Program-made: the position numbers and the translations under genes
IMG/VR virus record: IMGVR_UViG_3300032294_002470
Coordinates: 1-52,793 of that record
DNA: 52,793 bases
Source: a virus
Lineage: Duplodnaviria; Caudoviricetes
Reading direction: 5' to 3' (one strand)
Notes under the pieces: generated by a model
What the model was told of the DNA's origin: nothing
The model's database searches: none
What the model saw: the letters and a program-made list of their open reading frames with translations, nothing else
Shown: piece after piece, positions 1 through 18,231 of the stretch
How the letters are laid out: each line of letters starts with the position of its first letter
Numbering within the stretch: the first letter of the stretch is position 1

Positions 1-72
1 GAAAATTCCTTCGTCTGTGGTTATTTTTATAGTTCCACCATCAAGGAACATTTCAAATTTTTTAATTTCCAT
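1..72 (-). CDS. Partial hypothetical protein (runs off window; probable further array cassette)
   Basis: ATG at 72, MEIKKFEMFLDGGTIKITTDEGIF..., open to the window edge. Confidence 0.6.
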   Translation of the reverse strand, partial: MEIKKFEMFLDGGTIKITTDEGIF

Positions 73-114
73 AATTTATATTTTTTTATAAGGTAAAACA
101 AAAATAATACATAC

Positions 115-168
115 TTATAACAAAGTGTAAAAAACATTAAAACGATTTTTTACACTCAACCGTTAGCG
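115..168. repeat. attC-like site 1
   Basis: TAAC 118-121, stem AGTGTAAAAAA/TTTTTTACACT, GTTA 162-165. Confidence 0.75.
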
Positions 169-174
169 GCAACC

Positions 175-447
175 CTACGACAGTTCTCCGTAAACATTTT
201 TGTAGTATTGAATTTCAGTTTCTCCATTTACTTCATCAGCAGAGTTTTGACCAGCCAAATGTGCATTTTGAATTTGCTCACGTTCTTCTTGAAGCATACC
301 TTTAAATGTAATTTTAGCCATTACTAAATTTGTGATTGCGGCATCAGCACCAAACTTGTATTTAGCATCTTTGCCTTTCTTTGAATTTTCGACAATACTC
401 ATTTGGCTGTCAAGTAATTCAATAACTTTTTGCAATGTTGTTTTCAT
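175..447 (-). CDS. Cassette hypothetical protein
   Basis: 90 aa ORF between sites 1 and 2. Confidence 0.8.
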   Translation of the reverse strand: MKTTLQKVIELLDSQMSIVENSKKGKDAKYKFGADAAITNLVMAKITFKGMLQEEREQIQNAHLAGQNSADEVNGETEIQYYKNVYGELS

Positions 448-490
448 TTTTTATTGTTTAAATTGTTAATCATTCCGAAAGAAGGGCAGC

Positions 491-564
491 CGATAACAGC
501 ACATACACGCTATTTCCCCTCCCTCAATCCAATGCTCACAGCGTGTATCTGCCATACGTTAGTT
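491..564. repeat. attC-like site 2
   Basis: TAAC 494-497, stem ATACACGCT/AGCGTGTAT, GTTA 558-561. Confidence 0.75.
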
Positions 565-789
565 GTAATTTTCATCACACCATTCTAATATACTCAAAAT
601 TTCTTCTGCTCTATCAATATATTTTTCAGATTCAACTTCATTACACATTATTGAAATATTCATATAATAATCATAATCGTTTTTCAATTTAAGTTTAAGT
701 TTATCAAAAAAACTACAACTAACATCAGATATATGTAATTTTTCATTACTCTTATCTAAGTTTTGTTCTAAATTTTTACTTTCTTCCAT
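559..789 (-). CDS. Cassette hypothetical protein (probable start MEESKN inside site 3 loop)
   Basis: Stop TAA coincides with the GTTA core of site 2; ATG at 789. Confidence 0.7.
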   Translation of the reverse strand: MEESKNLEQNLDKSNEKLHISDVSCSFFDKLKLKLKNDYDYYMNISIMCNEVESEKYIDRAEEILSILEWCDENYN

Positions 790-838
790 TTTATTAAATT
801 TTGTGTTAAAAACTACATATATCTGAGTATCGTTAGCA
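717..838. repeat. attC-like site 3
   Basis: TAAC 720-723, stem TCAGATATATGTA/TACATATATCTGA, GTTA 832-835. Confidence 0.75.
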
Positions 839-1177
839 GTCATTGCTACCATACGTTTCTAAATCGACAATTTCGCCAACTTCATTACGATATTGAAATT
901 TAAAATTGTCTGTAAAATTTCTATGCAAAGCCGAGCTTGAAAATACTTTTTTACGTTGAACACAACTTGCAATATCTTCAATCTTTGCCCTGCCAAAATC
1001 GTGACTATCACCGTGCAAAGTGAATATTGAATTATCTCTATCAAGTGTCCACCACCCACCGCCTTTAACCTTTGAAATATCGGTTGCAAGTTGCTTGTGG
1101 TAAGTGCATTTTGCCACTATTAAACAATCGCCTTCTTGGTCGTCTGTTTCTATTATAAATTTTGGGAATACATCCAT
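833..1177 (-). CDS. Cassette hypothetical protein
   Basis: ORF track 833..1210; ATG at 1177 (MDVFPK) preferred; stop lies in site 3 core. Confidence 0.75.
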   Translation of the reverse strand: MDVFPKFIIETDDQEGDCLIVAKCTYHKQLATDISKVKGGGWWTLDRDNSIFTLHGDSHDFGRAKIEDIASCVQRKKVFSSSALHRNFTDNFKFQYRNEVGEIVDLETYGSNDC

Positions 1178-1215
1178 TTTAAATTGAGTTTTATCGTTAA
1201 TAATCCGCAACGAAC

Positions 1216-1346
1216 TGCTAACATAGTGTTGCCAAAATGGGGGCAGACGTGCATTTAATGAACATTTGTACTGTGTTCAGCAGTAGTGCTTTTAATGGGC
1301 TTTTGTGCTATAAATCACCCACTTCGGCAACACTCGACCGTTAGCC
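1216..1346. repeat. attC-like site 4
   Basis: TAAC 1219-1222, stem AGTGTTGCC/GGCAACACT, GTTA 1340-1343. Confidence 0.75.
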
Positions 1347-1574
1347 GCAATTTACGACCTCACCCTCTTCATCGTGCAAATACCATTCGACACCTTTTGC
1401 ATTGCGACTAAGCCAAGCATCATCATAATCCGACTTACCAACTATGCAAACTACTTCACCTATTTCAAATTCGTGTCCGTGAAAGCAATGCAAAACTTTT
1501 ACACACTCACCGAAAGCAAAACTGCGGCTAACATCGGTTTTGTGCAAGTGGGGGTTTTCTACTTTATTCATCAT
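1341..1574 (-). CDS. Cassette hypothetical protein (start inside site 5)
   Basis: 77 aa ORF; N-terminus NPHLHKTDVS is encoded by the repeat arm. Confidence 0.7.
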   Translation of the reverse strand: MMNKVENPHLHKTDVSRSFAFGECVKVLHCFHGHEFEIGEVVCIVGKSDYDDAWLSRNAKGVEWYLHDEEGEVVNCG

Positions 1575-1651
1575 TTGTTCTTTTAATTAAGTTTAGTGGT
1601 GGGTTAAAACTTTCGTATTCCGCTACGATTTCATAGCCTCGACCGTTAGGT
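1526..1651. repeat. attC-like site 5 (chimeric, arms do not pair)
   Basis: TAAC 1529-1532, GTTA 1645-1648; left and right arms non-complementary. Confidence 0.6.
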
Positions 1652-1655
1652 TCAA

Positions 1656-1850
1656 TTAAATTATTGTTTTGATTTCTTTTAAATGTTTTTCATGAACCAA
1701 CCAAATGTTAGGTTCTACATTTTCATCAGTTTTAACAACTAAATAACCATTACCCTTATCTTCAATACATCTTACTACTTTTCCATTTGGTTGTAACTCT
1801 GGTCTATGACTTTCTGATAAACCTGTTTGATAATTCTTTCCTATTTTCAT
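1656..1850 (-). CDS. Cassette hypothetical protein
   Basis: 64 aa ORF. Confidence 0.75.
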   Translation of the reverse strand: MKIGKNYQTGLSESHRPELQPNGKVVRCIEDKGNGYLVVKTDENVEPNIWLVHEKHLKEIKTII

Positions 1851-1888
1851 ATTTCTTTTTTTAATTTGTAAAACAATAATTTAACTAA

Positions 1889-1981
1889 ATATAACAACAA
1901 ATATACCACATTTTTATCAAACAAAAAAATTAATTTGAAACTTTCTACCAAAAAAACGTTGTATATTTGCAACCGTTATAA
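1889..1981. repeat. attC-like site 6 containing TAnnTTTG promoter-like motifs
   Basis: TAAC 1892-1895, stem CAAATATAC/GTATATTTG, GTTA 1975-1978. Confidence 0.7.
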
Positions 1982-2170
1982 AACATTTTTCAATACACCA
2001 AGTTCCTTTGATTTTACCAAAAATTCTGTTTCATCTTCCAAAGAAAGAGTTGAAAACAAATGATGTTCTACTACATAAGGTGCTGCGTTTGATGTAACTA
2101 AATCATTTAAATTAGCTTTATCCCAGAATTTTTCAACTCTTTCTTCTTGTTCTTTTGTTAATTTTTCCAT
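1976..2170 (-). CDS. Cassette hypothetical protein
   Basis: 64 aa ORF, stop in site 6 core. Confidence 0.75.
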   Translation of the reverse strand: MEKLTKEQEERVEKFWDKANLNDLVTSNAAPYVVEHHLFSTLSLEDETEFLVKSKELGVLKNVL

Positions 2171-2181
2171 ATTAAAACGTT

Positions 2182-2273
2182 TTATAACAAGGTATATGTG
2201 AAATACCTCATAAAGTTTCTACTAAATTTAAAGTTCTGCGGTTAGGTACTTCACATATACCCAACCGTTATCG
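2182..2273. repeat. attC-like site 7
   Basis: TAAC 2185-2188, stem GGTATATGTGAAATACCT/AGGTACTTCACATATACC, GTTA 2267-2270. Confidence 0.78.
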
Positions 2274-2279
2274 GCAACC

Positions 2280-2510
2280 CTAAAAGATTGGCGGTACATA
2301 AGACCAATAGACAACGTTTTCAATTTCGTAATCTGAAATCTCATCATAGAAGTTTCTAAAATGACCTCCATCCATACATCCTTCATACATTACACCTACG
2401 TGTATTTTTTCATCATCGGTTGCTAAAAGCAAAGTATCACTTTTCAAACCGTCCCAATTTCCAGACTTTACAGCTATTGGGGTTTCATCACTTAGTTTTT
2501 TCCAAACCAT
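2280..2510 (-). CDS. Cassette hypothetical protein (DUF551-like)
   Basis: MVWKKLSDETP...VVYW pattern typical of DUF551-like phage proteins. Confidence 0.7.
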   Translation of the reverse strand: MVWKKLSDETPIAVKSGNWDGLKSDTLLLATDDEKIHVGVMYEGCMDGGHFRNFYDEISDYEIENVVYWSYVPPIF

Positions 2511-2551
2511 TTTATTTTATGTTTTAAATTAATAATCATAGAAAGGGCAAC

Positions 2552-2635
2552 CGATAACAGGTGTTTGGCAAAATGGCTTCCCAACGCTCAATGCCAACAC
2601 ACAAAGCCACTTCGCCAAGCCGAGAACCGTTAGGC
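2552..2635. repeat. attC-like site 8
   Basis: TAAC 2555-2558, TTGGCAAAATGGCTT...AAGCCACTTCGCCAA, GTTA 2629-2632. Confidence 0.78.
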
Positions 2636-2642
2636 GAAAGTG

Positions 2643-2993
2643 CTACGTCCCTCGTTCTACCCATCGTTCCAATTCTTCGAGTGTTAAATTCCCAAATGAT
2701 TTAATTTGGCTTTCTGTATATGGTTCATCCCAATACTCAATCAACTTACCTTCTTTTGTTGTAAAAGATTGCCATATCTTAAATTCTCTTTGTGTCCAAT
2801 CTTTTACTTTATCTGCCGTTTCAGTTCTGATGCTTAATCCTATTCTGTGGTCAGAAAAGCCAAAATAATGATTTCCGTTTAACACTCTATGTAAGTGCCA
2901 ATAACCAAATAGCGATACTAAATTAACCGCACCTTCGCCTAACAACACATTGCCAAAAGTGGGGTTTTCGTTTTTCAAATCAACATTTTTCAT
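2643..2993 (-). CDS. Cassette hypothetical protein (start inside site 9)
   Basis: 116 aa ORF. Confidence 0.75.
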   Translation of the reverse strand: MKNVDLKNENPTFGNVLLGEGAVNLVSLFGYWHLHRVLNGNHYFGFSDHRIGLSIRTETADKVKDWTQREFKIWQSFTTKEGKLIEYWDEPYTESQIKSFGNLTLEELERWVERGT

Positions 2994-3068
2994 ATTATCA
3001 AGTTTTGTATTTCAATTAAACATTAGTGGTATAATGCCCCACCTTCGGCAATCTGCAAACCGTTATAC
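2937..3068. repeat. attC-like site 9
   Basis: TAAC 2940-2943, ATTGCCAAAAGTGGGG/CCCCACCTTCGGCAAT, GTTA 3062-3065. Confidence 0.75.
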
Positions 3069-3120
3069 ACAATACTACATTAGTTTCAAATTAAGTTTAG
3101 TGATAAAAACTTTTTAAAAA

Positions 3121-3369
3121 TTATTTCTCAAACTTTGGTAAGAATCTAATCAAATTATTTTGAACAGGTGTTGGTAAAGAATTAAAATCATATTCTTGGT
3201 AATATTCTGCATCAGCAAAATCATCCAATGATAAAATTTTATATCTATCCTTTATGCTCAACATATTCCAATAATTTTCAATTTTTTCCCAGTCAATCAA
3301 ACCTTCATTTAATTTCTTATTATTGAAAGTTTTGAAATCATCTATTAATTTTCTCATATCTTTACTCAT
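3121..3369 (-). CDS. Cassette hypothetical protein
   Basis: 82 aa ORF flanked by internal inverted repeats. Confidence 0.75.
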   Translation of the reverse strand: MSKDMRKLIDDFKTFNNKKLNEGLIDWEKIENYWNMLSIKDRYKILSLDDFADAEYYQEYDFNSLPTPVQNNLIRFLPKFEK

Positions 3370-3464
3370 ATTTTTTAGTTTATATATAAATATTCAGAAA
3401 TTGATTTTTTAAAAAGTTTTATTCATGATTCATATCAAACTTCTACTTAATTAATCCGCACTGT

Positions 3465-3518
3465 GTATAACAAATGATAAACAACATTAAAACGATTGTT
3501 TATCATCGGACGTTATCG
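3465..3518. repeat. attC-like site 10
   Basis: TAAC 3468-3471, stem ATGATAAACAA/TTGTTTATCAT, same loop CATTAAAACGA as site 1, GTTA 3512-3515. Confidence 0.75.
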
Positions 3519-3661
3519 GCTATTGTAAGGACGACAGTTTTGTAACCAACATTCAAACCAATATTCGGTAGTTTCTCAACAAACTCCTCGTAGCTTCTAA
3601 CTACGATCCAGCTCTTATCGATTGGGGTCCTAATGTCGTCTAAGTATATTTTATGCTTCAT
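3503..3661 (-). pseudogene. Truncated cyclic-phosphate-processing receiver-like gene running into the array edge
   Basis: MKHKIYLDDIRTPIDKSWIVVRSYEEFVEK..., lacks the downstream DHDLG part and stops inside site 10. Confidence 0.5.
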
Positions 3662-4724
3662 TCAGTAAAAATTTATTTGAAATTACCTTGAACGAAATTT
3701 TTCGATCAAGACTTCTGATGACAACGCCCTCCCTATCAAAATTTGGATTAAGACTTGATTTTGAATCAGCGTACTCGAGTAATTGATCTATTGTATCAGG
3801 CAGAGCGAATTTGGTTTCAACTATTGGAACAATTGGTAAACCAAATCCCAAGACTAGTTTAGTAAACTCTTCAAATCCCAAGTATTCTTGAGTGTCGATA
3901 TTAAAAGCATTAAAGAACTTCACAGTCTGTCCTCTTAATTTATAAGGGTTCTTTTGAATTCCCTCGCCTACCAATTCTCCTTGAATGCAAATATTATAGC
4001 CAACTGACTCTAATTTAGGCTTAATCTCCATTTCTCTAGCGACTTTCCAAAACGTATTTTCATCAGTCTCCAGCAGTTCCAAATTACGTGAACACGCTCC
4101 AAACTCTCCGTCCTTTAAGTAGAAAGTTGCGGACGAACCGTCCAATTTCTCAGTTACGTAAAAAGCCTGATCTTTCCAACTTTCATAATGGTCGGTTAAG
4201 TTCTGTACGCGTTCCTCATCAGTCTTGTGAATGAATGACGGGAACATGCCTTTAACCTTACCTGATAACTCTGCTGGAATTGGTGGTTCATACTTAAGCA
4301 CGCACATGTACTCAGTAACGTCAGTGCCTTCTTCGATAACAAGCGCGTCATCATAGGGTCCAAGCTGAAGCTGATCTCCCCAAGGCTGTTTACTGATTCC
4401 AATCTTCATTTCATCTTCCTTTTCCAGAACACTTAATGGTAAACATAGCCCTTGCGAAACCTGCCCTCTAAGCTTAATTGTTTTTAATCTGAATCCCTCT
4501 AAGTCTCCCATCTTTTTGTATGAAGACTTTCTTAGGAATTCAAAGTCCTTCTCCATCGGTAGAAACGAATCTATTTCAAAATAGACGCAGAGGTCGCCCT
4601 CTGTGAATTCACCTTTTTTTGCAACTACGTTCCAGCTATTGATCTGAACTACTTCGATTGTATCAGCTCCATCAATCGGTTTGATTGCGCGGACTCTTTG
4701 AATGCTTGCTAATTTTCTTTCCAT
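3651..4724 (-). CDS. RNA ligase, DRB0094/Rnl2-like family
   Basis: N-terminal MERKLASIQ OB-like region, motif I TEKLDGSS, QGELVG, REGVV, FKVIS. Confidence 0.9.
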   Translation of the reverse strand: MERKLASIQRVRAIKPIDGADTIEVVQINSWNVVAKKGEFTEGDLCVYFEIDSFLPMEKDFEFLRKSSYKKMGDLEGFRLKTIKLRGQVSQGLCLPLSVLEKEDEMKIGISKQPWGDQLQLGPYDDALVIEEGTDVTEYMCVLKYEPPIPAELSGKVKGMFPSFIHKTDEERVQNLTDHYESWKDQAFYVTEKLDGSSATFYLKDGEFGACSRNLELLETDENTFWKVAREMEIKPKLESVGYNICIQGELVGEGIQKNPYKLRGQTVKFFNAFNIDTQEYLGFEEFTKLVLGFGLPIVPIVETKFALPDTIDQLLEYADSKSSLNPNFDREGVVIRSLDRKISFKVISNKFLLNEA

Positions 4725-4727
4725 TTT

Positions 4728-5030
4728 TTAATCTTTTATTTTTAAAATTAAGGTACCCCAACTAAGACTAATCCAAAATTTGAACCAAATGAAGTCAACT
4801 CCTATCATTAGGTTTGGTGAGTGTGTGTCTTTCCACAACCACTTAGGCAAACCTTTGGTTGAACCTACCGTTCTGTAAGTCTTCCACCAAATTCCCAAGC
4901 GTCTCTCAGTCTTCCACTTTCGTTTGTCCCACCAATTACTGTCATTGTCCTTTTCCCATTGGTGTCTGAGCACTAGGTCGATCTTAAGCTGACCAAGATT
5001 AGTGTGAAGTCCGTGATTACTCTTTCTCAT
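4728..5030 (-). CDS. Hypothetical protein
   Basis: 100 aa Trp-rich ORF in operon. Confidence 0.7.
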   Translation of the reverse strand: MRKSNHGLHTNLGQLKIDLVLRHQWEKDNDSNWWDKRKWKTERRLGIWWKTYRTVGSTKGLPKWLWKDTHSPNLMIGVDFIWFKFWISLSWGTLILKIKD

Positions 5031-5250
5031 GGCCTGAGTTTTTGATTATTGTGTAGGTTCCGCATACTGTTACTGATTGAGGATCTCCACCGCAACCGCA
5101 TTCGTTCTTGAACACAATACAACCGTTCGCATCCTTTGTATAGGAATTTGTCCAGTACTTACCGCCTTCGCTGTTAATCGTGTATTTTGCTGGTTTTCCG
5201 CAGCTTGCAAAAATTAAAGCTACGAATAATAAAATTATTATCTTTTTCAT
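5017..5250 (-). CDS. Putative lipoprotein
   Basis: Signal peptide with FASC lipobox. Confidence 0.75.
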   Translation of the reverse strand: MKKIIILLFVALIFASCGKPAKYTINSEGGKYWTNSYTKDANGCIVFKNECGCGGDPQSVTVCGTYTIIKNSGHEKE

Positions 5251-5251
5251 A

Positions 5252-5989
5252 TTATTCCTCCATTGTTGGTTTCAACCAAATCTTTGTCATAAAAATGTAT
5301 TCAAATAGTGCAGGATACCTCATCAATACTCTGAGAGTTTCGGCAGTATCGTGTTTGAAACATTTAAGTAGCTCTTCCCTGATTCTCTCAGCGGATACGA
5401 CTGCCATGAAGACTTCATAATCGAAGTGCTTGATGTGCTGATGCATGTCGGCTGTGATTACAAAGCCCTTAGTGATCATGAACCTGATCGCTCTTAGGAT
5501 TCTCAAAGGATCGTCCTTGAAAGTAACCTCGCAAGGTAACGGTGTTCTAAGAACTCCATTTTGTAAATCCTCAATTCCGTTGAATGGATCAATCAGTGCT
5601 CCATCCTCGTCCTTTGCGATTGCATTGAGCGTGAAGTCACGTCTTTGTAAATCATCGAATAGAGTTCCAGGCTTCACGATCGGTGTTCTTGTAAAAGGCA
5701 AGTATCCAACCTCTTTTCTAGCCATCACGAAATCCGCAACTCCCTGGTATTTGTGACCATCTGGAAATTTAGCCCTGATCGTATAACAGTCAGCTGTCAC
5801 TAAAAAGATTTGAAACTTCTCACGAGTCAAGTAGTCAACTAGCACTTTGAAAAGGTCTTCTGCTTCCGGAAACTCTTCAATTAAAGACTCCTTGGGAACG
5901 GCAACGAAATCAACGTCCTTTGACTGCAGGCCCAAGATTTCGTCCCTGACCTTGCCTCCTACCTCGTAAAATTTAAAAAATGGTTTCAT
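5252..5989 (-). CDS. tRNA nucleotidyltransferase (CCA-adding/poly(A) polymerase family)
   Basis: VGGKVRD..KDVDF, DLQRRDFTLNA, DDPLRILRAIRF, SAERIREEL. Confidence 0.92.
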   Translation of the reverse strand: MKPFFKFYEVGGKVRDEILGLQSKDVDFVAVPKESLIEEFPEAEDLFKVLVDYLTREKFQIFLVTADCYTIRAKFPDGHKYQGVADFVMARKEVGYLPFTRTPIVKPGTLFDDLQRRDFTLNAIAKDEDGALIDPFNGIEDLQNGVLRTPLPCEVTFKDDPLRILRAIRFMITKGFVITADMHQHIKHFDYEVFMAVVSAERIREELLKCFKHDTAETLRVLMRYPALFEYIFMTKIWLKPTMEE

Positions 5990-6007
5990 ATTACTTTAAT
6001 ATACCAA

Positions 6008-10803: not shown

Positions 10804-11793
10804 CTAGCACGAGTATACGTCTAACCAGTGCTGAATCATTTCATCTAACATCGTTTCAAACGTGTAATCATGAGACCAACTGGTTGCTCTAACTAATTTA
10901 CTAGGATCTCCCTTCAGATCATGTAGCTCTTCAGGTCTAAGAAACTTCTCATCAGTTTTAACCCAGTCTTTCCAATTCAAGGCTAGTTTAGAAAAGACGT
11001 ATTCACATAGATCCCTAACTGAATGAGATACACCGGTTGCACAAACGTAATCACCGGGTTCTTTTAACTGTAGGATTTCCCACATCGCTCTAACGTAATC
11101 CTTGGCATGGCCCCAATCTCGTGTTGCGGATAAATTGCCAAGCCTAAGTTCGGTCGAGAGCCCCAATTTAATCTTAACTGCCTCCTTACATACTTTATTA
11201 GTAACGAAGTTCGTACCGCGTCTTGGAGACTCGTGATTGAATAGGATTCCGTTTGACACGTACATTCCATAAGAGTTTCGGTAATTTCTTGCAATGTTAT
11301 ACGAGAAAACTTTTGCACAACCATACGGAGAGACAGGAGTCATTTGAGTAGTTTCCCTCTGGTACCCGTCCCGGTCAATCGAGTTTCCGAACATCTCAGA
11401 CGAAGAGGCTTGATAGACTCTAGCCTCAGGCTTAATTAGTCTTACGACCTCCAATAGATTTAATGTGCTTAAGCCTGTTGCATGCGCAGTATAGACGGGT
11501 TGATCAAACGAAATTCGAACATGCGACTGTGCAGCTAAGTTATAGATCTCGTCTGGCATGATTTCTTGAACAACTCTGATTAACGAAGATAAGTCAGTAA
11601 CGTCAGCATAGTGTAGCTTGACCTTTGCGTAAACATCATCTGTCAATCGAGCGGTTTGATTCTCAGAGATTGAATTTCTTTTTAGGGTGCCGTGTACTTC
11701 GTAACCCTTGTCTAATAAAAACTCGGCTAAGTACGAGCCATCCTGCCCGTTTATTCCGGTGATTAGTGCTTTTTTATTTTCGTGCTGTTTCAT
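10804..11793 (-). CDS. gmd: GDP-mannose 4,6-dehydratase
   Basis: ALITGINGQDGSYLAE, YNLAAQSHV, SPYGCAK, RDWGHAKDYV. Confidence 0.97.
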   Translation of the reverse strand: MKQHENKKALITGINGQDGSYLAEFLLDKGYEVHGTLKRNSISENQTARLTDDVYAKVKLHYADVTDLSSLIRVVQEIMPDEIYNLAAQSHVRISFDQPVYTAHATGLSTLNLLEVVRLIKPEARVYQASSSEMFGNSIDRDGYQRETTQMTPVSPYGCAKVFSYNIARNYRNSYGMYVSNGILFNHESPRRGTNFVTNKVCKEAVKIKLGLSTELRLGNLSATRDWGHAKDYVRAMWEILQLKEPGDYVCATGVSHSVRDLCEYVFSKLALNWKDWVKTDEKFLRPEELHDLKGDPSKLVRATSWSHDYTFETMLDEMIQHWLDVYSC

Positions 11794-12676
11794 AATTGTC
11801 TATAAACCATTTTACTGTCTCCTTGAGGCCTTCCTCAATCGGTGTGAATTTAAAATCAGGTAGGTAACTCTTCAACTTTGAATTGTCTGAAGGTTTTCGG
11901 TGTTGGCCGTTTGGTTTTGACTTATCAAATCTAACTGCGCCCTTAAAATTAAATGCCTCAACTAGTAGTTCAACTACTTCAGCAATTGAAATTTCTTCTG
12001 ATGTGCTAAATATTATTGGCTCAGCCTCATCGTAGTTATCTACTGCCCATTCAGCAAGTCGAGCAACGTCCTTTGAGTATATGAATTCCCTAAGCGGCGA
12101 TCCATCTCCCCAAATGACGAGCTCGCTCTTGTTTTGTTGAGCTTTGTGTATCTTATGCATCAACATCGGAATGACATGCCCATGGTCCAGCGAAAAATTA
12201 TCGTTTGGCCCGTAGATGTTACACGGAATTACTGATGTGTACTTCACGCCATACTGTTCGCGATAGGCTCTGATTTGAATGTCCGACATCCGCTTTGCAT
12301 AGGCATAAGGATAGTTCGATGAGTGAGGTTCACCTAAGTGAATCTTCTTTTCAGTTAACGGATATTCGATTGCGTCCGGAAAAACGCAAGTTGAGAGAAA
12401 TGCTACTAGATTAGTAACTCCGGCTTTACGTGCCTCCTCAATGACGTTTGTGTTAATCATCAAGTTATCGTAAAAGTATTCTCCCTTATAATTCATGTTG
12501 CCGCCTAGTCCTCCGACTTTGCCAGCGCAGTGAATGACATGAGTAGGTTTATGGAGCTCGAATGCATTTTGAGTTTGAGCAGTATTAGTCAAGTCGAATT
12601 CTCTACCGATCTTAACGTCAGCCTCTATTGCTGATCCGACTAGCCCATTGCCACCGGTCACAAGTAATTTACGCAT
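11774..12676 (-). CDS. fcl: GDP-L-fucose synthase
   Basis: GGNGLVG, KVGGLGGN, YAYAKR, NIYGPNDNF, LREFIYS. Confidence 0.93.
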   Translation of the reverse strand: MRKLLVTGGNGLVGSAIEADVKIGREFDLTNTAQTQNAFELHKPTHVIHCAGKVGGLGGNMNYKGEYFYDNLMINTNVIEEARKAGVTNLVAFLSTCVFPDAIEYPLTEKKIHLGEPHSSNYPYAYAKRMSDIQIRAYREQYGVKYTSVIPCNIYGPNDNFSLDHGHVIPMLMHKIHKAQQNKSELVIWGDGSPLREFIYSKDVARLAEWAVDNYDEAEPIIFSTSEEISIAEVVELLVEAFNFKGAVRFDKSKPNGQHRKPSDNSKLKSYLPDFKFTPIEEGLKETVKWFIDNYETARK

Positions 12677-12713
12677 GTTAGATTGAGTCTTTTTATATTA
12701 TACTCTCAATCAG

Positions 12714-13790
12714 TTAACGGTTCCAGAAAGGTTTTTGATAGTCAGGTCGAATCATTCGCCAAATGGTTTGACTGTAGTCTCTGTCATGTAACATTGAGAA
12801 TACTAGACCTTGGTATTCCTTTGGGCAATTTGCTTGAATCCACAGTGCGTCATCCTTCTTGGTATCGAGAGGTTGGCTCAACAATTCAGCAAAGATCTTT
12901 TTTGCATCAATTTCCTTCATGACGAATGCAAATTTAAGAGCCCTGATCCAGTCTCTAACCCATGCATCAAATTCATCGGGCACGCTTTCAAGATACTCGC
13001 CTAGATCATCACCGTTTCGCAAGCACTCCCAAATATCAATGTTTGAAAAATTGGTCAACAGTCGGTGTAGTCTAACGTACTCGTCGAACTTGATCTTAAC
13101 TCGGTAATTTGATGGATGGAATCGTAGGACGAAACCTTCCTTATCAGATTCATTAAGGTTCTTATATCGTTTAAAAATATTCTCAGTAATGGTATCCATC
13201 GCCGTCCAAACAATATCCTCTTCAAGGATCCCAGATGAGTGAAATAGCGCTTTAGCCGTTCCCCAATTTACTTCACGCCCTTCCATGACGGCTGACAGAA
13301 ACATAAGCTTTTCTTCCGCATAGTCAACGACTATTCTATTTTCAGGATAGATGATCTCACAAATGTAACAAACAGTTGAATGAAACTTTCCAAGATCGTA
13401 CTTCTTTTTTAGAATCGCTAGACCTGCTTTGGCTTGATCGGATTCAAAGGACCCTCTTGTGGCCATGTGCCAATCGTTATCGTAATGAAATAGGATTCCC
13501 AACGAGCCGTCCATTTTTTCTTGCACATAAACGTACTCATCATTGACCGGAATCTCTCCCTTATTCTCGACCTCCTCGTAGTTAAAGAACTTATTGAAGC
13601 CTCTAGCGACTATTCGGTTCTCATGATCAAGAATCAAACCTCGACACTGTAAGGTCACTTGATCCCAACGTTGTTCGAACTGGCACTCTCTTGAGTAATT
13701 ATAAATGGTGAGTGGAAGCTTAGGATGGTCCTTTGCTTCCACTAATCCGTTATCAACGTAAGGCTGTATGATTTCTCTAGATAAGATCAT
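12714..13790 (-). CDS. T4 Rnl1-like RNA ligase
   Basis: CRGLILD, ARGFNKFFN, EKMDGSLG, KEGFV, VKIKF; ATG at 13790 preferred. Confidence 0.9.
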   Translation of the reverse strand: MILSREIIQPYVDNGLVEAKDHPKLPLTIYNYSRECQFEQRWDQVTLQCRGLILDHENRIVARGFNKFFNYEEVENKGEIPVNDEYVYVQEKMDGSLGILFHYDNDWHMATRGSFESDQAKAGLAILKKKYDLGKFHSTVCYICEIIYPENRIVVDYAEEKLMFLSAVMEGREVNWGTAKALFHSSGILEEDIVWTAMDTITENIFKRYKNLNESDKEGFVLRFHPSNYRVKIKFDEYVRLHRLLTNFSNIDIWECLRNGDDLGEYLESVPDEFDAWVRDWIRALKFAFVMKEIDAKKIFAELLSQPLDTKKDDALWIQANCPKEYQGLVFSMLHDRDYSQTIWRMIRPDYQKPFWNR

Positions 13791-13971
13791 AGTCTTTAGT
13801 TTTTTCAATTTGATGCCACATGATTCCGTCGAAACCTTCAATCACGTAACGATTTACGATTTTATAAATGGTCATGATACCTTTAAGACTATCAAGACTT
13901 GGTGAGAACGTTATTCCATGGGAAAATCCCTTAACTTCTCGATATTGTGCCCGGTATTCTATAAAGATCAT
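13777..13971 (-). CDS. Hypothetical protein
   Basis: Operon-packed ORF. Confidence 0.6.
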   Translation of the reverse strand: MIFIEYRAQYREVKGFSHGITFSPSLDSLKGIMTIYKIVNRYVIEGFDGIMWHQIEKTKDYDLI

Positions 13972-14288
13972 GAGGTTAGTAATTGAATAAGTAGATAAGA
14001 CAATTTGTAACCGGTGAATGCTCCGAGAGCCGACGGAATTGGAAACACTATTAGTTTTCCTAATTGGGTTACGTATTTCGGCCTATTCACGATTGTGCCC
14101 ATGTAAAAGTAGTAGGCAATGTATCCGAATAAAACAGCAACATCAGTTCTTGTTGCAATGAATACTACAAGAGTTGCGCCAATAAAACCGAATGTGAAGT
14201 TATCTCTGATACCTTCCCAGACTTCAGCAGCGGTTGCCTCGTTCCAATCCTTTACTATTTTTTTGAATGTTGCTTTTTGTCTTCTCAT
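13968..14288 (-). CDS. Membrane protein
   Basis: Several hydrophobic segments. Confidence 0.75.
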   Translation of the reverse strand: MRRQKATFKKIVKDWNEATAAEVWEGIRDNFTFGFIGATLVVFIATRTDVAVLFGYIAYYFYMGTIVNRPKYVTQLGKLIVFPIPSALGAFTGYKLSYLLIQLLTS

Positions 14289-14701
14289 AATTTAACTTCA
14301 AAACGATCTCTCATCTCCTGTACCTTCTCATCGGGTACTTCGTGGACGTTCTTGCCACCGTGGCGATTCTCAACGATTAAGGAAACGACATGATACTCGA
14401 ATTGCTTTGCTAAATCTAAGTATGCCTGCATCTCCCATTCTCTGGTGAATGTGTTTGACACTACTATTTCCGGATAGTGTTGACCTGCGCTTAGATGGTT
14501 CTGTTCCATTGCCTCCTGTACGGATCGACGACACCATTCATGGGCATCTTTTAATCTAGAACCGTCGAATTGGTATTTACCTTCCTCATCATAGAAGAAT
14601 TTGTCGGCTTCAAACACGACTCCGCTTGACCACATGTGATTAGCAAATGTGCTCTTACCTGAACCGGGAACTCCACGTAGGAGAATTAATACTCTACTCA
14701 T
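14285..14701 (-). CDS. P-loop polynucleotide-kinase-like protein (AAA_33)
   Basis: LRGVPGSGKST, VSNTF, NVHEVP motifs. Confidence 0.85.
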   Translation of the reverse strand: MSRVLILLRGVPGSGKSTFANHMWSSGVVFEADKFFYDEEGKYQFDGSRLKDAHEWCRRSVQEAMEQNHLSAGQHYPEIVVSNTFTREWEMQAYLDLAKQFEYHVVSLIVENRHGGKNVHEVPDEKVQEMRDRFEVKL

Positions 14702-15369
14702 TACTTAGTCTTCTTTAATATTACTTGATCAATTATGCCATACTTAACTGCTTCGTCTGCTGTCAACCAGAAATCTCTAGTTGCGTCTTTCTTAACTTGG
14801 TCAGGTTTTTTACCGCAGTACTTGCCTAAGAGAATGAAGAGTTCATCATTGATTTTCTTCCACTCTTCCATGTCAACTTCAGCATCCTGGATGTTTCCGC
14901 TAAAACCTCCGCTTGATTGATGTAACATCGTACGTGAGTGCTTTAGTGAGAATCGCTTGCCTTTAGTTCCAGCGCCAAGAAGAACTGATCCCATTGATGC
15001 GGCCATTCCGGTATTAACTGTGATTATATCGGCATTGATGTAGTCCATCACATCGACCATTGAGAGGCCTGACTTGACTGATCCGCCTGGAGAGTCAATG
15101 TGCATTGTGATATCTGCTCCACCGACCGAGTCAAGAAACATTAGCTGAGCCTGAACGATTGTTGACATGTAATCATTCACCGGTCCAGCAACCCATAAGA
15201 TACGATCACGCATTAATCTGGAGAAAATGTCCATTTGAGTAACACGTAGCTCGCGTTCCTCTAGGATATACGGCGTCATTGACGCTTCAACTTGTTTTTG
15301 ATAATTATGCAAATTCAGCGATGACACACCGTGCTCGCTCATTGCGTACTTTTGAAATTCGCTCTTCAT
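14701..15369 (-). CDS. clpP: ATP-dependent Clp protease proteolytic subunit
   Basis: MDIFSRLMRDRI, DSPGGSV, GMAASMGS, MLHQ, RDFWL. Confidence 0.95.
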   Translation of the reverse strand: MKSEFQKYAMSEHGVSSLNLHNYQKQVEASMTPYILEERELRVTQMDIFSRLMRDRILWVAGPVNDYMSTIVQAQLMFLDSVGGADITMHIDSPGGSVKSGLSMVDVMDYINADIITVNTGMAASMGSVLLGAGTKGKRFSLKHSRTMLHQSSGGFSGNIQDAEVDMEEWKKINDELFILLGKYCGKKPDQVKKDATRDFWLTADEAVKYGIIDQVILKKTK

Positions 15370-15373
15370 ACTA

Positions 15374-15757
15374 TTAATTTTCAGAATTATTTGCGAAAAA
15401 ATTTAACAAACTTCTAATGTTACGTTGATCATTGCTCAACTTTTCAATCTCAATACGTTTTTCTGAGATTTCACGTTGCATGTAATCATAGTCTGTTTTT
15501 AGGTCCATCAACTCTTGAGTCTCATTGGCATCCTCAATGAAGGCTGCTTCACGAGCTTCAGCATTCGAATAGACTTTCTTTCCGTTGCCATCGATCGCAT
15601 TGTTAATATCAGCTTTAATTTTTGACTCAATCGTGGTAATTTTGTCCTGTACCTGTTTAGAGGCTTCGGTTCTTTCCAAGATTTCCAATTGGATCTCGCT
15701 GATTGCTTGAGGCAGTTCCATTAAACGGTCCGCCATTTCTGAGAATTTTTGATTCAT
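15374..15757 (-). CDS. Coiled-coil hypothetical protein
   Basis: 127 aa ORF. Confidence 0.75.
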   Translation of the reverse strand: MNQKFSEMADRLMELPQAISEIQLEILERTEASKQVQDKITTIESKIKADINNAIDGNGKKVYSNAEAREAAFIEDANETQELMDLKTDYDYMQREISEKRIEIEKLSNDQRNIRSLLNFFANNSEN

Positions 15758-15789
15758 GATTTCTATTTTTAGGTTAATATACCAAACGG

Positions 15790-15863
15790 TGGACCTTTCA
15801 GGATTTGAACCTGAGACCTTCGCATTATGAGTGCGCTGCTCTAACCAGCTGAGCTAAAAGTCC
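15790..15863 (-). tRNA. tRNA-Ile2/Met (CAT)
   Basis: Cloverleaf, loop CTCATAA; body resembles Ile2. Confidence 0.85.
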
Positions 15864-15865
15864 AA

Positions 15866-15950
15866 TGGTGCCGCCGGCAGGACTCGAACCTGCGAAGCCC
15901 GAAGGCAAGGGATTTACAGTCCCTCGTAATTGCCACTATACGACGTCGGC
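15866..15950 (-). tRNA. tRNA-Tyr (GTA)
   Basis: Long variable arm, loop CTGTAAA, CCA encoded. Confidence 0.92.
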
Positions 15951-15959
15951 ATGATTTTG

Positions 15960-16031
15960 CTGGGATAGGAGGGATCGAACCTCCGACCTTAGAGTTAACA
16001 GCTCTCTGCTCTACCGCTGAGCTATATCCCA
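15960..16031 (-). tRNA. tRNA-Asn (GTT)
   Basis: Loop CTGTTAA. Confidence 0.92.
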
Positions 16032-16036
16032 ATTTG

Positions 16037-16113
16037 TGGTTGGCAATGCAGGACTCGAACCTGCGGCCTCCTCCGTATCAGAGAGGTGCTCTAACCAACT
16101 GAGCTAATTGCCA
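16037..16113 (-). tRNA. tRNA-Ile (GAT)
   Basis: Loop CTGATAC, CCA encoded. Confidence 0.92.
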
Positions 16114-16121
16114 ATTTATTG

Positions 16122-16196
16122 TCGGGATAGGAGGATTCGAACCTCCAGCCTCCTGCTCCCAAAGCAGGCGCGATAACCTGGTTACGCTATATCCCG
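16122..16196 (-). tRNA. tRNA-Pro (TGG)
   Basis: Loop TTTGGGA. Confidence 0.92.
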
Positions 16197-16199
16197 AAA

Positions 16200-16462
16200 T
16201 TTGCTCCATGCTGAGACGTGTACGAAGGCTAGATTTTAACGGGTTACTCTGACTGTTTCGAGAACCATCACCGTGCAGCTTTTGCCGCTTCAGCTTTTTC
16301 ATTAGTGTCTTACCACATAAAAACCTGTCAATCCTTACGTCGGCGATGCAGGATCTTGCTATCGTTAGTCCGAATCGATACCTCATTAGGTCGAGGATTT
16401 TTTTACCACCATCGCTTTATTTAAAGAATGCGACCAATCTTACTGAGCATCTCTTACTCATT
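16200..16462 (-). ncRNA. Candidate structured ncRNA (~260 nt)
   Basis: Non-coding spacer between tRNAs; ends ATGCTCAG...CTCAGCAT near-complementary. Confidence 0.4.
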
Positions 16463-16463
16463 G

Positions 16464-16536
16464 TACAACCTGCAAGATTCGAACTTGCGACCTTTTCCAT
16501 GTCAAGGAAACGCTCTTCCAGCTGAGCTAAGGCTGC
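16464..16536 (-). tRNA. tRNA-Val (GAC)
   Basis: Loop TTGACAT. Confidence 0.92.
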
Positions 16537-16537
16537 A

Positions 16538-16592
16538 TGGAGTCGGAAAGACATGCTGGCTCATATTGAGTTTGGACGCAAGCCCTTCCGAC
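16538..16592 (-). ncRNA. CCA-ended minihelix RNA candidate
   Basis: GTCGGAAGGGC/GTCTTTCCGAC 11-bp stem followed by TCCA. Confidence 0.45.
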
Positions 16593-16598
16593 ATTTAG

Positions 16599-16670
16599 TA
16601 GTCCCTGAGAATTTCGAAATCCCGACCCTCGCCATGTAAAGACGATGCTCTGCCTCTGAGCTAAAGGACT
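16599..16670 (-). tRNA. tRNA-Val (TAC)
   Basis: Loop TTTACAT. Confidence 0.88.
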
Positions 16671-16752
16671 AGTTGACACGCTTTCGCCCCCTGTATGACG
16701 TGTCTTAGATGCCCGTGGTCCGCCACAGCGAATAAGGGAGCCACCCACATTC

Positions 16753-17211
16753 TTATTTGCAAATCTTGTCCGCGATGTATGTTGCTGAGATTGCATACGG
16801 TTTGCAGCGTGGAGTGTAACCTGAACCTTCAACGTAACCTAATGCTGCTCTTAGTAAAGAGTTAGAGCCGTATCGAGGATCAGGGTTTAGGTCAACATCA
16901 ATGAAGGTTGGTTTACAGACGCCATTCGCTTCCAAGTACTGAGCGAGCTCAACAGAGTCCTCAACCTCTTGCCATAGTCTCGTGAATCGGTTAACGACCT
17001 TTGGAAGGGTCTTTTTTGAATAGATCACGTGCCCACCGCTATTTCCGTAATGTAGAACAATGACTAACGCGTAAACTGTTTTCTCACCAATCGTTTGACT
17101 ATCCGATCCGATATACATTCTGATATTATCAGCTTCCGCTAGTTTTGTTTCCAAATAGGGAATGAGATCGATGTAGGCTCCGTTTGTTAGTGATTGAAAT
17201 TTACGGTCCAT
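16753..17211 (-). CDS. RNase H-like YkuK (DUF458) family protein
   Basis: YIGSDSQ, RLWQEV..SV, DVDLN, KPYAISATYIAD; ATG at 17211 (longer ORF overlaps tRNA-Gly). Confidence 0.85.
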   Translation of the reverse strand: MDRKFQSLTNGAYIDLIPYLETKLAEADNIRMYIGSDSQTIGEKTVYALVIVLHYGNSGGHVIYSKKTLPKVVNRFTRLWQEVEDSVELAQYLEANGVCKPTFIDVDLNPDPRYGSNSLLRAALGYVEGSGYTPRCKPYAISATYIADKICK

Positions 17212-17229
17212 TGTTTTAGGTGTTATTTT

Positions 17230-17304
17230 TGGAGCAGGTGGGGAGAATCGAACTCCCATCTCCAGATTGGAAGTCTGGAGTAATAGCCGTTATACGACAC
17301 CTGC
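17230..17304 (-). tRNA. tRNA-Gly (TCC)
   Basis: Loop CTTCCAA, CCA encoded. Confidence 0.92.
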
Positions 17305-17440
17305 ATTACAACTTTTGTATTATCCTAAGAGTTGCCAACTTCGCCGACATACGATTCGGGGGACGTCCACGCCAACACACGTTAAGTGTCTGTAATTCCC
17401 ATCTTCGATCCTTAATTGTGCACCACCAGAGGGCTGTTTG

Positions 17441-17513
<73 letters not shown>

Positions 17514-17523
17514 AATTTGGGTT

Positions 17524-17631
17524 GGATCAGAGGCCTTCTGCCAACCGAGACCTTGTCGTTAACTTTCGTCAGAGCGTACCAAGACACCATTTAATTTTTC
17601 GACTTGAGGTAGTCACGGCCGCCTCTGATCC
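17524..17631 (-). ncRNA. Candidate ~108 nt structured RNA
   Basis: Perfect 11-bp terminal stem GGATCAGAGGC/GCCTCTGATCC. Confidence 0.5.
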
Positions 17632-17685
17632 TCTCAAGTCTATTTCGTATCTTGGCAAAATGCGGCTCGACCCTGATACGCTGTG

Positions 17686-17758
17686 AGCCTCCTGCCGGGA
17701 TCGAACCAGCGACCTACTGATTACAAATCAGTTGCTCTACCAGCTGAGCTAAGGAGGC
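17686..17758 (-). tRNA. tRNA-Thr (TGT)
   Basis: Loop TTTGTAA. Confidence 0.95.
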
Positions 17759-17811
17759 AGTTTAGCGATTATGTTGCAACCAACGTTTTCTTGGTGAAGA
17801 ACGACCTGGTG

Positions 17812-17885
17812 TGGACCGTGAGAGACTCGAACTCTCGACCCCCTGCGTGCAAGGCAGGTGCTCTAGCCATCTGAGCTAACAGCCC
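17812..17885 (-). tRNA. tRNA-Ala (TGC)
   Basis: Loop TTTGCAC-type, G3:U70. Confidence 0.93.
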
Positions 17886-17889
17886 TTAA

Positions 17890-18030
17890 AAGAACAACGT
17901 TGGAGTACCCGTCTCGCTCCAATCTTAACAGCTTCATCAGAGTTTTCTCTGGGCCCAGGCTGAGGGTGATGACCTCTTTGGTCCGGCCGTGATTGTCGAC
18001 ATCACATTGGCCGGAGAGACCGTCATTCTT
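17890..18030 (-). ncRNA. Candidate multi-stem structured RNA (~140 nt)
   Basis: Closing stem AAGAATGACG/CGTTGTTCTT; internal CCGGCC..GTGAT/ATCAC..GGCCGG and TTGGAG/CTCCAA stems. Confidence 0.5.
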
Positions 18031-18032
18031 AG

Positions 18033-18128
18033 TAGCGATAGAGGGATTCGAACCGGTGAAAGATCTTCATGAAACTCTTTCCTCTGCATCGGTGCTCATG
18101 ACTGCGACCGACTCTCCAAGGTATCGCC
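18033..18128 (-). ncRNA. Aberrant tRNA-like element
   Basis: Acceptor GGCGATA/TATCGCT, GGTTCGAATCC T-loop, no canonical D/anticodon arm. Confidence 0.5.
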
Positions 18129-18231
18129 ATTTGGATATTTCAGAAGAGGTTACTAAACTTCAGCTCTTCAAAGCTTCTCAGCTTACAACGTTCCGTCAAT
18201 TGTTTACGCTGCTAACTTATTCGATAAAGCG

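Follow-up and report, generated by a model that had tools for sequence, protein, structure and literature searches.

An integron-like cassette array in a large T4-like phage fragment and its association with a compact tyrosine recombinase in related phages

Integrons count as bacterial devices, with the integrase IntI as their defining component, and to our knowledge the only integron elements previously known from phages were stray attC clusters and bacterial integrons that had been captured. Whether a phage can possess a gene-capture system of this type is the question raised by a 52,793 nt stretch of DNA from a Caudoviricetes virus (IMG/VR record IMGVR_UViG_3300032294_002470). The whole of this 52.8 kb contig is called the window below; it represents about 20% of a genome. 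Topoisomerase II subunits, RNA ligases and a tRNA cluster show that the carrier is a lytic-type, T4-like phage. At one end of the fragment (nt 115–3518), ten sites of the form TAAC–hairpin–(C)CGTTA enclose nine single ORFs, each of them on the minus strand, so that nine small cassettes lie in a row (Table 1). The region is very probably the inner section of an integron-like cassette platform in the genome of this large phage.

Table 1. Features of the cassette array (nt positions in the window; site hairpins run from the start of TAAC to the end of GTTA on the plus strand).
Feature	Position	Strand	ORF	Site hairpin	Remarks
Partial further cassette	1–161	-	from 72, off contig	site 1, upstream on gene strand	nt 79–165 86% identical to L001:12328–12414
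attC-like site 1	118–165	-		118–165 (48 nt, short class)	loop motif TCGTTTTAATG on gene strand
Cassette 1	162–557	-	175–447 (90 aa)	site 2, 494–561	ORF without family
Cassette 2	558–831	-	559–789 (76 aa)	site 3, 720–835	ORF starts within site 3 hairpin and reads across GTTA core; nt 718–822 85% identical to LR756500; leader common to L085
Cassette 3	832–1339	-	833–1177 (114 aa)	site 4, 1219–1343	
Cassette 4	1340–1644	-	1341–1574 (77 aa)	site 5, 1529–1648	weak hybrid hairpin; site 5 encodes first 17 residues, phrog_10201 matches residues 18–74 only
Cassette 5	1645–1974	-	1656–1850 (64 aa)	site 6, 1892–1978	unit ends form a 26-nt inverted repeat; site 6 95.6% identical to L001:13092–13180
Cassette 6	1975–2266	-	1976–2170 (64 aa)	site 7, 2185–2270	site 7 89% identical to L001:13399–13510
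Cassette 7	2267–2628	-	2280–2510 (76 aa)	site 8, 2555–2632	
Cassette 8	2629–3061	-	2643–2993 (116 aa)	site 9, 2940–3065	ORF starts within site 9 hairpin
Cassette 9	3062–3511	-	3121–3369 (82 aa)	site 10, 3468–3515	short class; site 10 96% identical to L001:18112–18161
Truncated cREC_REC gene	3503–3661	-	52 aa		inner edge of array; final codons extend into y'-TAAC of site 10

The layout of ten sites and nine single ORFs had been described in an initial annotation of the sequence, and it was reproduced here. A strand-symmetric hairpin detector, made for this analysis and distinct from IntegronFinder, found nine sites in nt 1–3600, compared with a mean of 0.56 and a maximum of five in 200 dinucleotide shuffles, and returned only three weak matches in the remaining 49 kb of the contig. 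The tenth (site 5), missed by the detector, has a weak, apparently hybrid hairpin (-5.1 kcal/mol). The motif CGTTA occurs 47 times in the contig, 11 of them inside the first 3.6 kb, and none of the 52 occurrences of TAACG falls there. Three further claims of the annotation also held: the stop codon TAA lies within the core in four of the nine ORFs (those ending at 559, 833, 1341 and 1976), the array leaves the contig at its start, where another ORF begins at 72 and exits at position 1, and the contig carries no PF00589 (tyrosine recombinase) gene.

An Rfam search returned no match for the sites. Their consensus (292 sites) is TAAC-G..TATA..loop..TATA..T-GTTA with an asymmetric spacer, and compensatory changes were seen in 17 of 20 pairs (77 sites). 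As in attC sites, these are imperfect hairpins with R''/R' boxes and an unpaired spacer, in which structure is conserved above sequence. Folding of both strands, a check proposed with the annotation, revealed a preference for one of them: of 268 sites, 242 folded more stably on the gene strand under RNA parameters and 238 under DNA parameters, although part of this bias could be due to site selection, as the first detector gave slight weight to gene-strand G·T pairs.

The two ends of a unit were said to match each other while the two flanks of a site do not, and the data agree. In the window, GTTA+N6 is perfectly complementary to N6'+TAAC in five of nine units and nearly so in the rest, and in eight of the nine the pairing runs on past a G·T at position 7. 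Among relatives, all six end bases are complementary in 126 of 239 units, as against 0 of 312 flank pairs from the same site and 1.4% of shuffled partners. This is the signature of integron cassettes: R' is complementary to the R'' of its own cassette, and every site in the array is a hybrid. On the gene strand each cassette runs G–imperfect hairpin–T-GTTA–N6–small ORF–N6'–TAAC, and would be excised and inserted by site-specific recombination within the TAAC/GTTA core; exchange at that point would leave the ends of one cassette able to pair and the two flanks of one site not. The substrate is presumably folded single-stranded DNA, and circles may serve as intermediates. In assembled contigs of public runs neither circles nor excision junctions were seen, the joints there having sides of less than 30 nt.

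Inverted GTTA...TAAC ends on every unit, and hairpins adjoining a conserved tetranucleotide, could also suggest small terminal-inverted-repeat transposable elements, or single-strand 'peel and paste' elements of the IS200/IS605 type, that were inserted serially. However, only the 4–5 terminal bases are conserved between units, the remaining inverted repeat being unit-specific, no transposase was found in the array, and no flanking direct repeats were noticed when the site flanks were read by eye. The conserved neighbour gene of such arrays is, moreover, a tyrosine recombinase (see below), and serial transposition is a most improbable origin for the region.

The annotation had named a fixed gene order in relatives, and breakpoints lying away from the cores, as observations that would speak against cassette shuffling, along with the lack of an associated recombinase; on all three points the outcome was in its favour. 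The closest relative, contig L001, is 95.7% identical to the window over nt 3569–6000, but within the array the two have only site hairpins in common and the order is different. Identity stops near nt 3569, at the truncated cREC_REC gene, which covers only profile positions 2–30 of 88 of Pfam PF20274; the L001 copy is full length (135 aa). For shared blocks with at least 95% identity and diverging flanks, 9 of 16 right ends fall at TAAC or TAACG and 13 of 24 left ends begin at TAAC or at the base preceding it, the other seven and eleven not being at a core. The crossover, which the annotation put at G^TT, can be placed no more finely than within TAAC(G). Whole cassettes recur in different settings. 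Cassette 3 is found in L126 (92.4% identity over 524 nt; protein 94% identical), where homology stops at TAACG. A 315-nt cassette bounded by TAAC...TAACG is common to L001 and L155 at 100% identity, and the recombinases of these two contigs are about 59% identical. A 960-nt block (99.9% identity) is the last in the array in L086 and L087 but internal in L094.

A tyrosine recombinase near similar sites, which the annotation had recommended searching for, is present in relatives. The L001 array (about 17–20 sites at 11750–18160) is followed by a recombinase gene at 18831–19643 (270 aa), the product of which matches PF00589 (3e-34) and PF13495, with NF040815 'tyrosine recombinase/integron integrase' as the best NCBIfam match. 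The catalytic residues R, K, H, R, H and Y are invariant across 24 homologues. At 37 of 45 related recombinase loci (non-redundant, each with at least 2 kb of sequence upstream), at least three sites lie immediately upstream, and the same orientation is found in 307 of 333 upstream sites; arrays downstream of the recombinase were seen at only 3 of 68 loci. In a control set of 80 RNA-ligase loci, an array was found in L001 only, as was the recombinase. The arrays of relatives end at a conserved attI-like junction, TAAC followed directly by TATNATATAT, ahead of the recombinase gene, and comparison of near-identical recombinase loci shows a different cassette next to each, with TAAC as the breakpoint. 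As a point against, Flavobacterium phage filifjonk and the huge phage LR756500 carry arrays, but neither is among the matches listed for a tblastn search with P0001 (E ≤ 1e-20). The linkage of arrays and recombinase points to the recombinase as the likely catalyst of exchange, encoded in relatives directly after the last cassette and behind the junction. The phage of the window probably encodes such an enzyme too, in which case the gene would be expected beyond contig position 1.

By its sequence the recombinase is a compact (about 268–270 aa) Xer/IntI-like protein without the IntI-specific insertion. Its scores lie below the integron-integrase cut-offs (TIGR02249, 151 vs 265; NF040815, 176 vs 220), and IntegronFinder expects an integrase with the IntI-specific additional domain, which it lacks. 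Alignment to VchIntIA (2a3v) covers residues 22–181 and 213–266 and skips about 50 IntI residues, while among solved structures Pyrococcus XerA (4a8e) matches best, with 122 bits over a single stretch. Smyshlyaev et al. describe the insertion, in IntI, as indispensable for integron function. The phage enzyme shares its simple two-domain architecture and complete catalytic set with archaeal XerA and XerC/D, but is encoded beside cassette arrays, whereas Xer recombinases act at the chromosomal dif site.

Taken alone, the window fits the definition of a CALIN (at least two attC sites in a row, no integron integrase nearby), having ten sites, as called with our own detector, and no tyrosine recombinase in its 52.8 kb. 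It might then be a passive fragment of a host's chromosomal integron that no longer recombines in the phage, and the available text of PMC9892861 does report 17 CALINs, of two or three attC sites each, in as many phages, including a virulent Polaribacter (Flavobacteriia) phage. That text includes DNA methyltransferases among the cargo and mentions no phage-specific recombinase family. The present arrays also carry methyltransferases (6 of the 20 largest cassette ORFs) but, compared with what is reported there, run to at least 17–18 sites, with a dedicated recombinase and an attI-like junction linked to them. With a median of 392 nt the cassettes are small, their cargo is of phage type, and near-identical ones move among related phage contigs. 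The recombinases encoded on phage contigs fall on one side of a single branch in the tree (SH-aLRT 94). Orientation differs as well: cassette ORFs are antisense to the canonical attC polarity in all nine units of the window, and in phage relatives 218 of 225 unit ORFs are sense to the recombinase and on the strand opposite to the canonical one, whereas all 17 ORFs scored in bacterial arrays are canonical. A captured, inert fragment is on these grounds very unlikely. With a dedicated recombinase adjoining arrays in related phages, these phages seem to own a gene-capture system of a kind hitherto known chiefly from bacteria.

The better-folding strand is the equivalent of the attC bottom strand and at the same time the mRNA strand, so that all cassette ORFs are inverted relative to bacterial cassettes. 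For some ORFs the attC provides the start codon, lying within a loop, together with a short leader. The better folding of the mRNA strand with conserved G·U-type pairs, these start codons, and hairpin families that are common to several phages while the ORFs differ, could also mean that the hairpins act as RNA-level or regulatory elements (terminator/promoter or processing), with shuffling by ordinary homologous recombination between repeats. PeSLs, terminator/promoter composites exchanged in this way in hyperplastic regions, are documented in the available text of PMC4122927. They resemble the present case in the T4-like carrier, the short stem-loops flanking small accessory ORFs of unknown function and the modular swapping between close relatives. 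Yet a stem-loop terminator joined to an early promoter was not what the array displayed: sigma-70-like promoters were not in excess (18 vs 17.2 expected, in a scan that is blind to phage-specific and Bacteroidota promoters except TANNTTTG), nor were intrinsic terminators (1 vs 1.3). The motif TANNTTTG, which we take to be a Bacteroidota-type promoter element, was likewise at its expected level in the array (56 vs 54.4). Breakpoints cluster at a 4-nt core and not within the long homologous hairpin bodies, complementary cassette ends are not a product of homologous exchange, the arrays are accompanied by a recombinase and a conserved junction, and bacterial arrays have the same sites with ORFs on the other strand. 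Regulatory hairpins shuffled by homology are thus an improbable explanation of the array, though the hairpins may have a secondary RNA role.

Set against bacterial integrons, the integron-like platform agrees in its single-ORF cassettes separated by imperfect hairpin sites with AAC/GTT cores, in full R''/R' pairing only within one cassette, in conservation of structure rather than sequence with one strand folding better, and in gain, loss and reordering at the cassette level. The geometry also appears canonical, with the recombinase gene and a non-hairpin, attI-like site that may be the primary one at the same array end relative to attC polarity. The integron reading of the annotation is in these respects supported and extended. 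It needs amending for the recombinase, which is Xer-like and lacks the IntI insertion, for the ORFs, which are not co-oriented with the attC top strand, are directed towards the recombinase and have no Pc-type promoter that a promoter scan of the array could find, for the start codons inside attC and for the carrier, a lytic-type T4-like phage. The fuller proposal, for which we judge the chances to be about even, is a phage-specific integron lineage built on a compact Xer-like recombinase, in which the recombinogenic attC strand is the mRNA strand, inverted cassettes receive 5' leaders and start codons from attC, and the array is a swappable store of counter-defence genes (orphan methyltransferases, RNA-repair enzymes).

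If true, a platform of this kind, owned by phages and equipped with a recombinase clade of its own, would provide a mechanism by which small accessory genes turn over fast in the hyperplastic regions of large phages. It would also indicate that candidate anti-defence genes form a large, modular pool, and it would make one ask how an enzyme that lacks the IntI insertion recognises attC-type sites. The bacterial relatives of the recombinase adjoin attC arrays with identical TAAC/GTTA cores and the same end signature, and in genomes of Bacteroidota and Bacillota XerA-like recombinases are found next to canonical attC arrays. Surveys based on IntI recovered almost no complete integrons in Bacteroidetes or Firmicutes, according to the available text of PMC9024848, which suggests that a class of arrays, with XerA-like enzymes serving them, escapes such surveys. 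Together with the phage lineage, these arrays would mean that integron-type gene capture is not confined to IntI and is far more widespread than IntI-based searches show.

Homologues of seven of the nine window cassettes were not found in about 240 related loci. Orphan DNA methyltransferases are among the cargo. A Bacteroidota connection is suggested by similarity to Flavobacterium phages and to Bacteroidota recombinases. The leader of cassette 4 and its GTTAGCCGCA/TGCGGCTAAC ends flank a DNA methyltransferase in Flavobacterium phage filifjonk9-1.

The left end of the contig carries a genuine array that departs strongly from chance. Ten + strand sites, each built as TAAC(A)-imperfect hairpin-(C)CGTTA, are spread over positions 118–3515 and separate nine single ORFs of 64–116 aa, all of which (9/9) are on the minus strand, as are all genes in window 1–6000; the minus strand is referred to below as the gene strand. 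Of the 47 CGTTA motifs in the contig, 11 fall within the first 3.6 kb; none of the 52 TAACG motifs does. A strand-symmetric detector called nine sites in window 1–3600, against a mean of 0.56 (maximum 5) in 200 dinucleotide shuffles, and returned only three weak matches in the other 49 kb. The site that was not called (1529–1648) has mismatched arms and folds at only −5.1 kcal/mol. The core carries the TAA stop of four of the nine ORFs. Searches of the nine cassette ORFs against Pfam gave no family above cut-off, and one of them matches a PHROG (phrog_10201, function unknown). An Rfam scan of window 1–6000 (E ≤ 10) returned just three matches, all at chance level.

On the gene strand, every unit starts with GTTA+N6 and ends with N6'+TAAC. 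The two hexamers are perfectly complementary in five of the nine window units and nearly so in the remainder; at position 7, G stands opposite T in 8/9 units, and pairing resumes beyond. Related loci yielded 239 units, of which 126 pair over the full hexamer and 184 over at least four bases, while six-base pairing was found in 0/312 comparisons of the two flanks of one site and in 1.4% of shuffled partners. The initial annotation, which had described ten sites around nine single ORFs, complementarity between the ends of a unit rather than the flanks of a site, and stop codons within the TAAC core, is confirmed in every particular, and the array appears to behave as an integron-type cassette array. 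A reading of the units as transposons or as IS200/IS605-like elements was rejected, as only 4–5 terminal bases are common to them and the array contains no transposase.

Related contigs reveal a putative recombinase and an attI-like site, both of which are missing from the window. The closest relative, the 180-kb contig L001, is 95.7% identical to window 3569–6000; inside the array only the site hairpins match, ordered differently, and the ORFs are unrelated. Its array of about 17–20 sites is followed by a tyrosine recombinase gene (see table). The protein matches PF00589 (3e-34) and PF13495, and its best NCBIfam model is NF040815 ('site-specific tyrosine recombinase/integron integrase'; 176 bits, cut-off 220). 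It scores 151 on TIGR02249 (integron integrase; cut-off 265). The nearest solved structure is Pyrococcus XerA, and alignment to a Vibrio integron integrase falls into two pieces that skip ~50 residues, the IntI-specific insertion. The catalytic residues R, K, H, R, H and Y are invariant across 24 homologues.

Coordinates of features in the window and in related phage contigs
Feature	Locus	Position (nt)	Strand	Remarks
tRNA cluster	window	15788–23845		21 genes
tRNA with anticodon TTA	window	18520–18597	−	ARAGORN; within the 21-tRNA cluster; would read stop TAA
22nd tRNA gene	window	52672–52767		
cREC_REC gene	window	3503–3661	−	52 aa; cut relative to L001; adjoins RNA ligase
cREC_REC gene	L001	11064–11471		135 aa
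Array	L001	11750–18160		
'Empty cassette'	L001	18772–18800		directly before attI-like junction
Tyrosine recombinase gene	L001	18831–19643	same as array	270 aa; after the array
RNA ligase	L085	4816–5880		cassette ORF; PHA02142 OB fold + RNA_ligase

IMG/VR contains 206 relatives, of which 80 loci were fetched, and co-occurrence was counted with the strand-symmetric detector in 72 non-redundant loci (8 duplicates dropped). Where the recombinase gene has 2 kb or more of sequence before it (45 loci), at least three sites lie immediately upstream in 37 and at least two in 41. These upstream sites share one orientation in 307 of 333 cases, and their density drops as the distance from the gene grows. 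Arrays downstream of the gene were found at only 3/68 loci. In 80 control loci, fetched via the RNA ligase, L001 alone had an array and L001 alone the recombinase. A tyrosine recombinase near similar sites, for which the initial annotation had proposed a search, is thus present in relatives. In every case the final cassette runs up to a conserved junction, TAAC|TATNATATAT, which lies some tens of bases ahead of the recombinase start and would appear to behave like an attI. An 'empty cassette', GTTA-N5-TCGTTTTAATG-N5'-TAAC, was seen in L001 and likewise just before the recombinase gene in three other relatives (L098, L107 and L113). Its 11-nt loop is shared by the short sites of 48 nt (sites 1 and 10 in the window), and the window ORF at 1976–2170 has a near-copy immediately ahead of its start codon.

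In a tree of 125 proteins (midpoint root only), one branch (SH-aLRT 94) separates the 67 phage-contig recombinases from the rest. Bacterial recombinases with arrays show no clustering in it (7 changes vs 7.9 in shuffles); a single origin is not claimed. Among cultured phages, Cellulophaga phage Ingeline (39.5% identity) and Polaribacter phage Freya (36%) have the nearest integrases, and neither carries an array: the detector called no site at the Ingeline locus, and the Freya_10 locus has one isolated match (4097–4256) that overlaps the start of the integrase gene. Among the Polaribacter phage isolates Freya_1 to Freya_10 (44.0–48.9 kb), the integrase starts at 83, 84, 544, 1016, 3278, 3873 or 4180, so the length of the region before it varies between isolates. 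Arrays of at least 8–9 sites are present in Flavobacterium phage filifjonk9-1 (L081) and in the 462-kb phage LR756500 (L082), neither of which was among the matches when the recombinase (P0001) was searched against the phage collection (tblastn, E ≤ 1e-20); a more divergent recombinase, or an enzyme provided in trans, may serve these cassettes. Flavobacterium phage mumin also has arrays and, like filifjonk, is in culture.

The consensus of 292 sites is A-T(97%)-T-R-C-N-N-M-TAAC-G-K-T-T-G...TATA...loop...T-A-T-A(98%)-Y-N-N-G-T-T(99%)-GTTA-K-N-N-G-Y-A-G-T, in which the core-adjacent spacer is asymmetric, and site lengths group near 48, 88 and 125 nt. In the 80–92-nt class (77 sites), compensatory double changes occur at 17 of the 20 predicted pairs; the gene strand keeps several conserved G.U-type pairs, one of them in 74/77 sites. 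The gene strand is the stabler one in 242/268 sites with RNA parameters (mean difference −5.2 kcal/mol) and in 238/268 with DNA parameters (−2.0), a bias to be read with the caveat that the detector that collected these sites credited gene-strand G.T pairs half a point. In the window it is stabler at 10/10 sites, by as little as 0.1 in some.

Cassette movement is visible between relatives. A 1828-nt block is 100% identical in L086 and L094 and ends exactly after TAACG, and a 960-nt block (99.9%), with TAAC at its start and end, is the last cassette in L086 and L087 and internal in L094. A 315-nt cassette is 100% identical between L001 and L155, whose recombinases are only ~59% identical. Window 831–1352 (site 4 and the third ORF) was found in L126 at 92.4% identity, ending at TAACG. 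Among shared blocks of at least 150 nt and at least 95% identity with diverging flanks, 9/16 right ends are at TAAC or TAACG and 13/24 left ends at, or one base before, TAAC, with the rest elsewhere. Together with the different order in L001, these counts agree with the order changes and core breakpoints that the initial annotation had proposed to look for. On the gene strand the moving unit is a hairpin and its downstream ORF, and therefore exchange is placed at the 5' side of the hairpin. On the + strand this corresponds to C|GTTA, in agreement with the G^TTA of the initial annotation; the resolution of this placement is the shared TAAC(G). In Logan contigs from four runs, backbone 3572–6000 turns up in three further lake metagenomes, where something else stands in place of the array; each joint inside the array had a side shorter than 30 nt and none counts for circles or deletions. 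Unitigs of the source sample break at the sites. Summed contig depth at site 10 (window 3401–3600) exceeds the phage-backbone depth ~15-fold in four lake metagenomes (public runs), and therefore many genomes in these samples must carry the short hairpin family in highly repeated form.

Cassettes are small, with medians of 392 nt for the whole unit and 89 aa for its ORF. In relatives, the 20 largest of these ORFs comprise six DNA methyltransferases, an RNA ligase, an Rv2179c-like exoribonuclease, one sub-threshold PARP-like similarity and 11 without family. An RNA ligase of the type found beside the window array is itself a cassette ORF in phage contig L085. Only one of the nine window ORFs has a homologue among ~240 fetched loci. 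The PHROG match of the fourth ORF starts only at residue 18, and its leader and GTTAGCCGCA/TGCGGCTAAC ends also flank a DNA methyltransferase in filifjonk9-1. Scans of the array for sigma-70 promoters, intrinsic terminators and the TANNTTTG motif showed no enrichment.

If the window + strand is read as the 'top' strand of attC, the recombinase gene agrees with canonical integrons in both its end of the array and its orientation, and the bottom strand folds better, also as in integrons; in all features accessible from sequence, the phage array would work like an integron. It does not belong to the integron family as defined by IntI. Unlike in integrons, its recombinase lacks the IntI insertion and falls below IntI cut-offs, ORFs are on the bottom strand (9/9 window units, 218/225 in relatives; top strand 17/17 in four bacterial arrays examined), and some ORFs, including some in the window, begin within the hairpin and read through the core. 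We infer that the recombinase would catalyse exchange, that single-stranded DNA would be its substrate and that circles would be intermediates. The nearest phage phenomenon, the PeSLs of T4-like phages, is described as operating via homologous recombination (PMC4122927). Qi et al. 2023 (PMC9892861) report 17 CALINs and three complete integrons in phages, including a Polaribacter phage and methyltransferase cargo, and recombination of phage attC sites with IntI1; no phage recombinase family is described there. A phage recombinase-linked attC platform was not found described in the open-access literature and bioRxiv consulted. Complete integrons are reported to be almost absent from Bacteroidetes and Firmicutes (IntegronFinder 2.0, PMC9024848). 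Bacterial relatives of the recombinase (L180, Desulfitobacterium sp. Sab5; L204, Flavobacterium sp. NRK F7; L167; L219) are 353–385 aa long, with an N-terminal extension and no IntI insertion, and score just above the NF040815 cut-off. Directly downstream of them come attC arrays that have TAAC/GTTA cores, complementary cassette ends and ORFs in the canonical orientation; such loci may be integrons classed as CALINs by IntI-based tools.

The window is an entire IMG/VR contig (52,793 bp, an estimated ~20% of the genome) from a T4-like large phage, and encodes topoisomerase II subunits, two RNA ligases, a tRNA nucleotidyltransferase and 22 tRNAs. The last codons of the window cREC_REC gene make up an ordinary cassette end (A-T-N6-TAAC) joined to site 10, and identity to L001 at this gene ends near 3569, which suggests that the inner edge of the array has undergone a deletion or an off-target recombination. 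Despite a tRNA with anticodon TTA, general recoding looks unlikely because large genes are intact under the standard code; even so, TAA of the core terminates 4/9 cassette ORFs.
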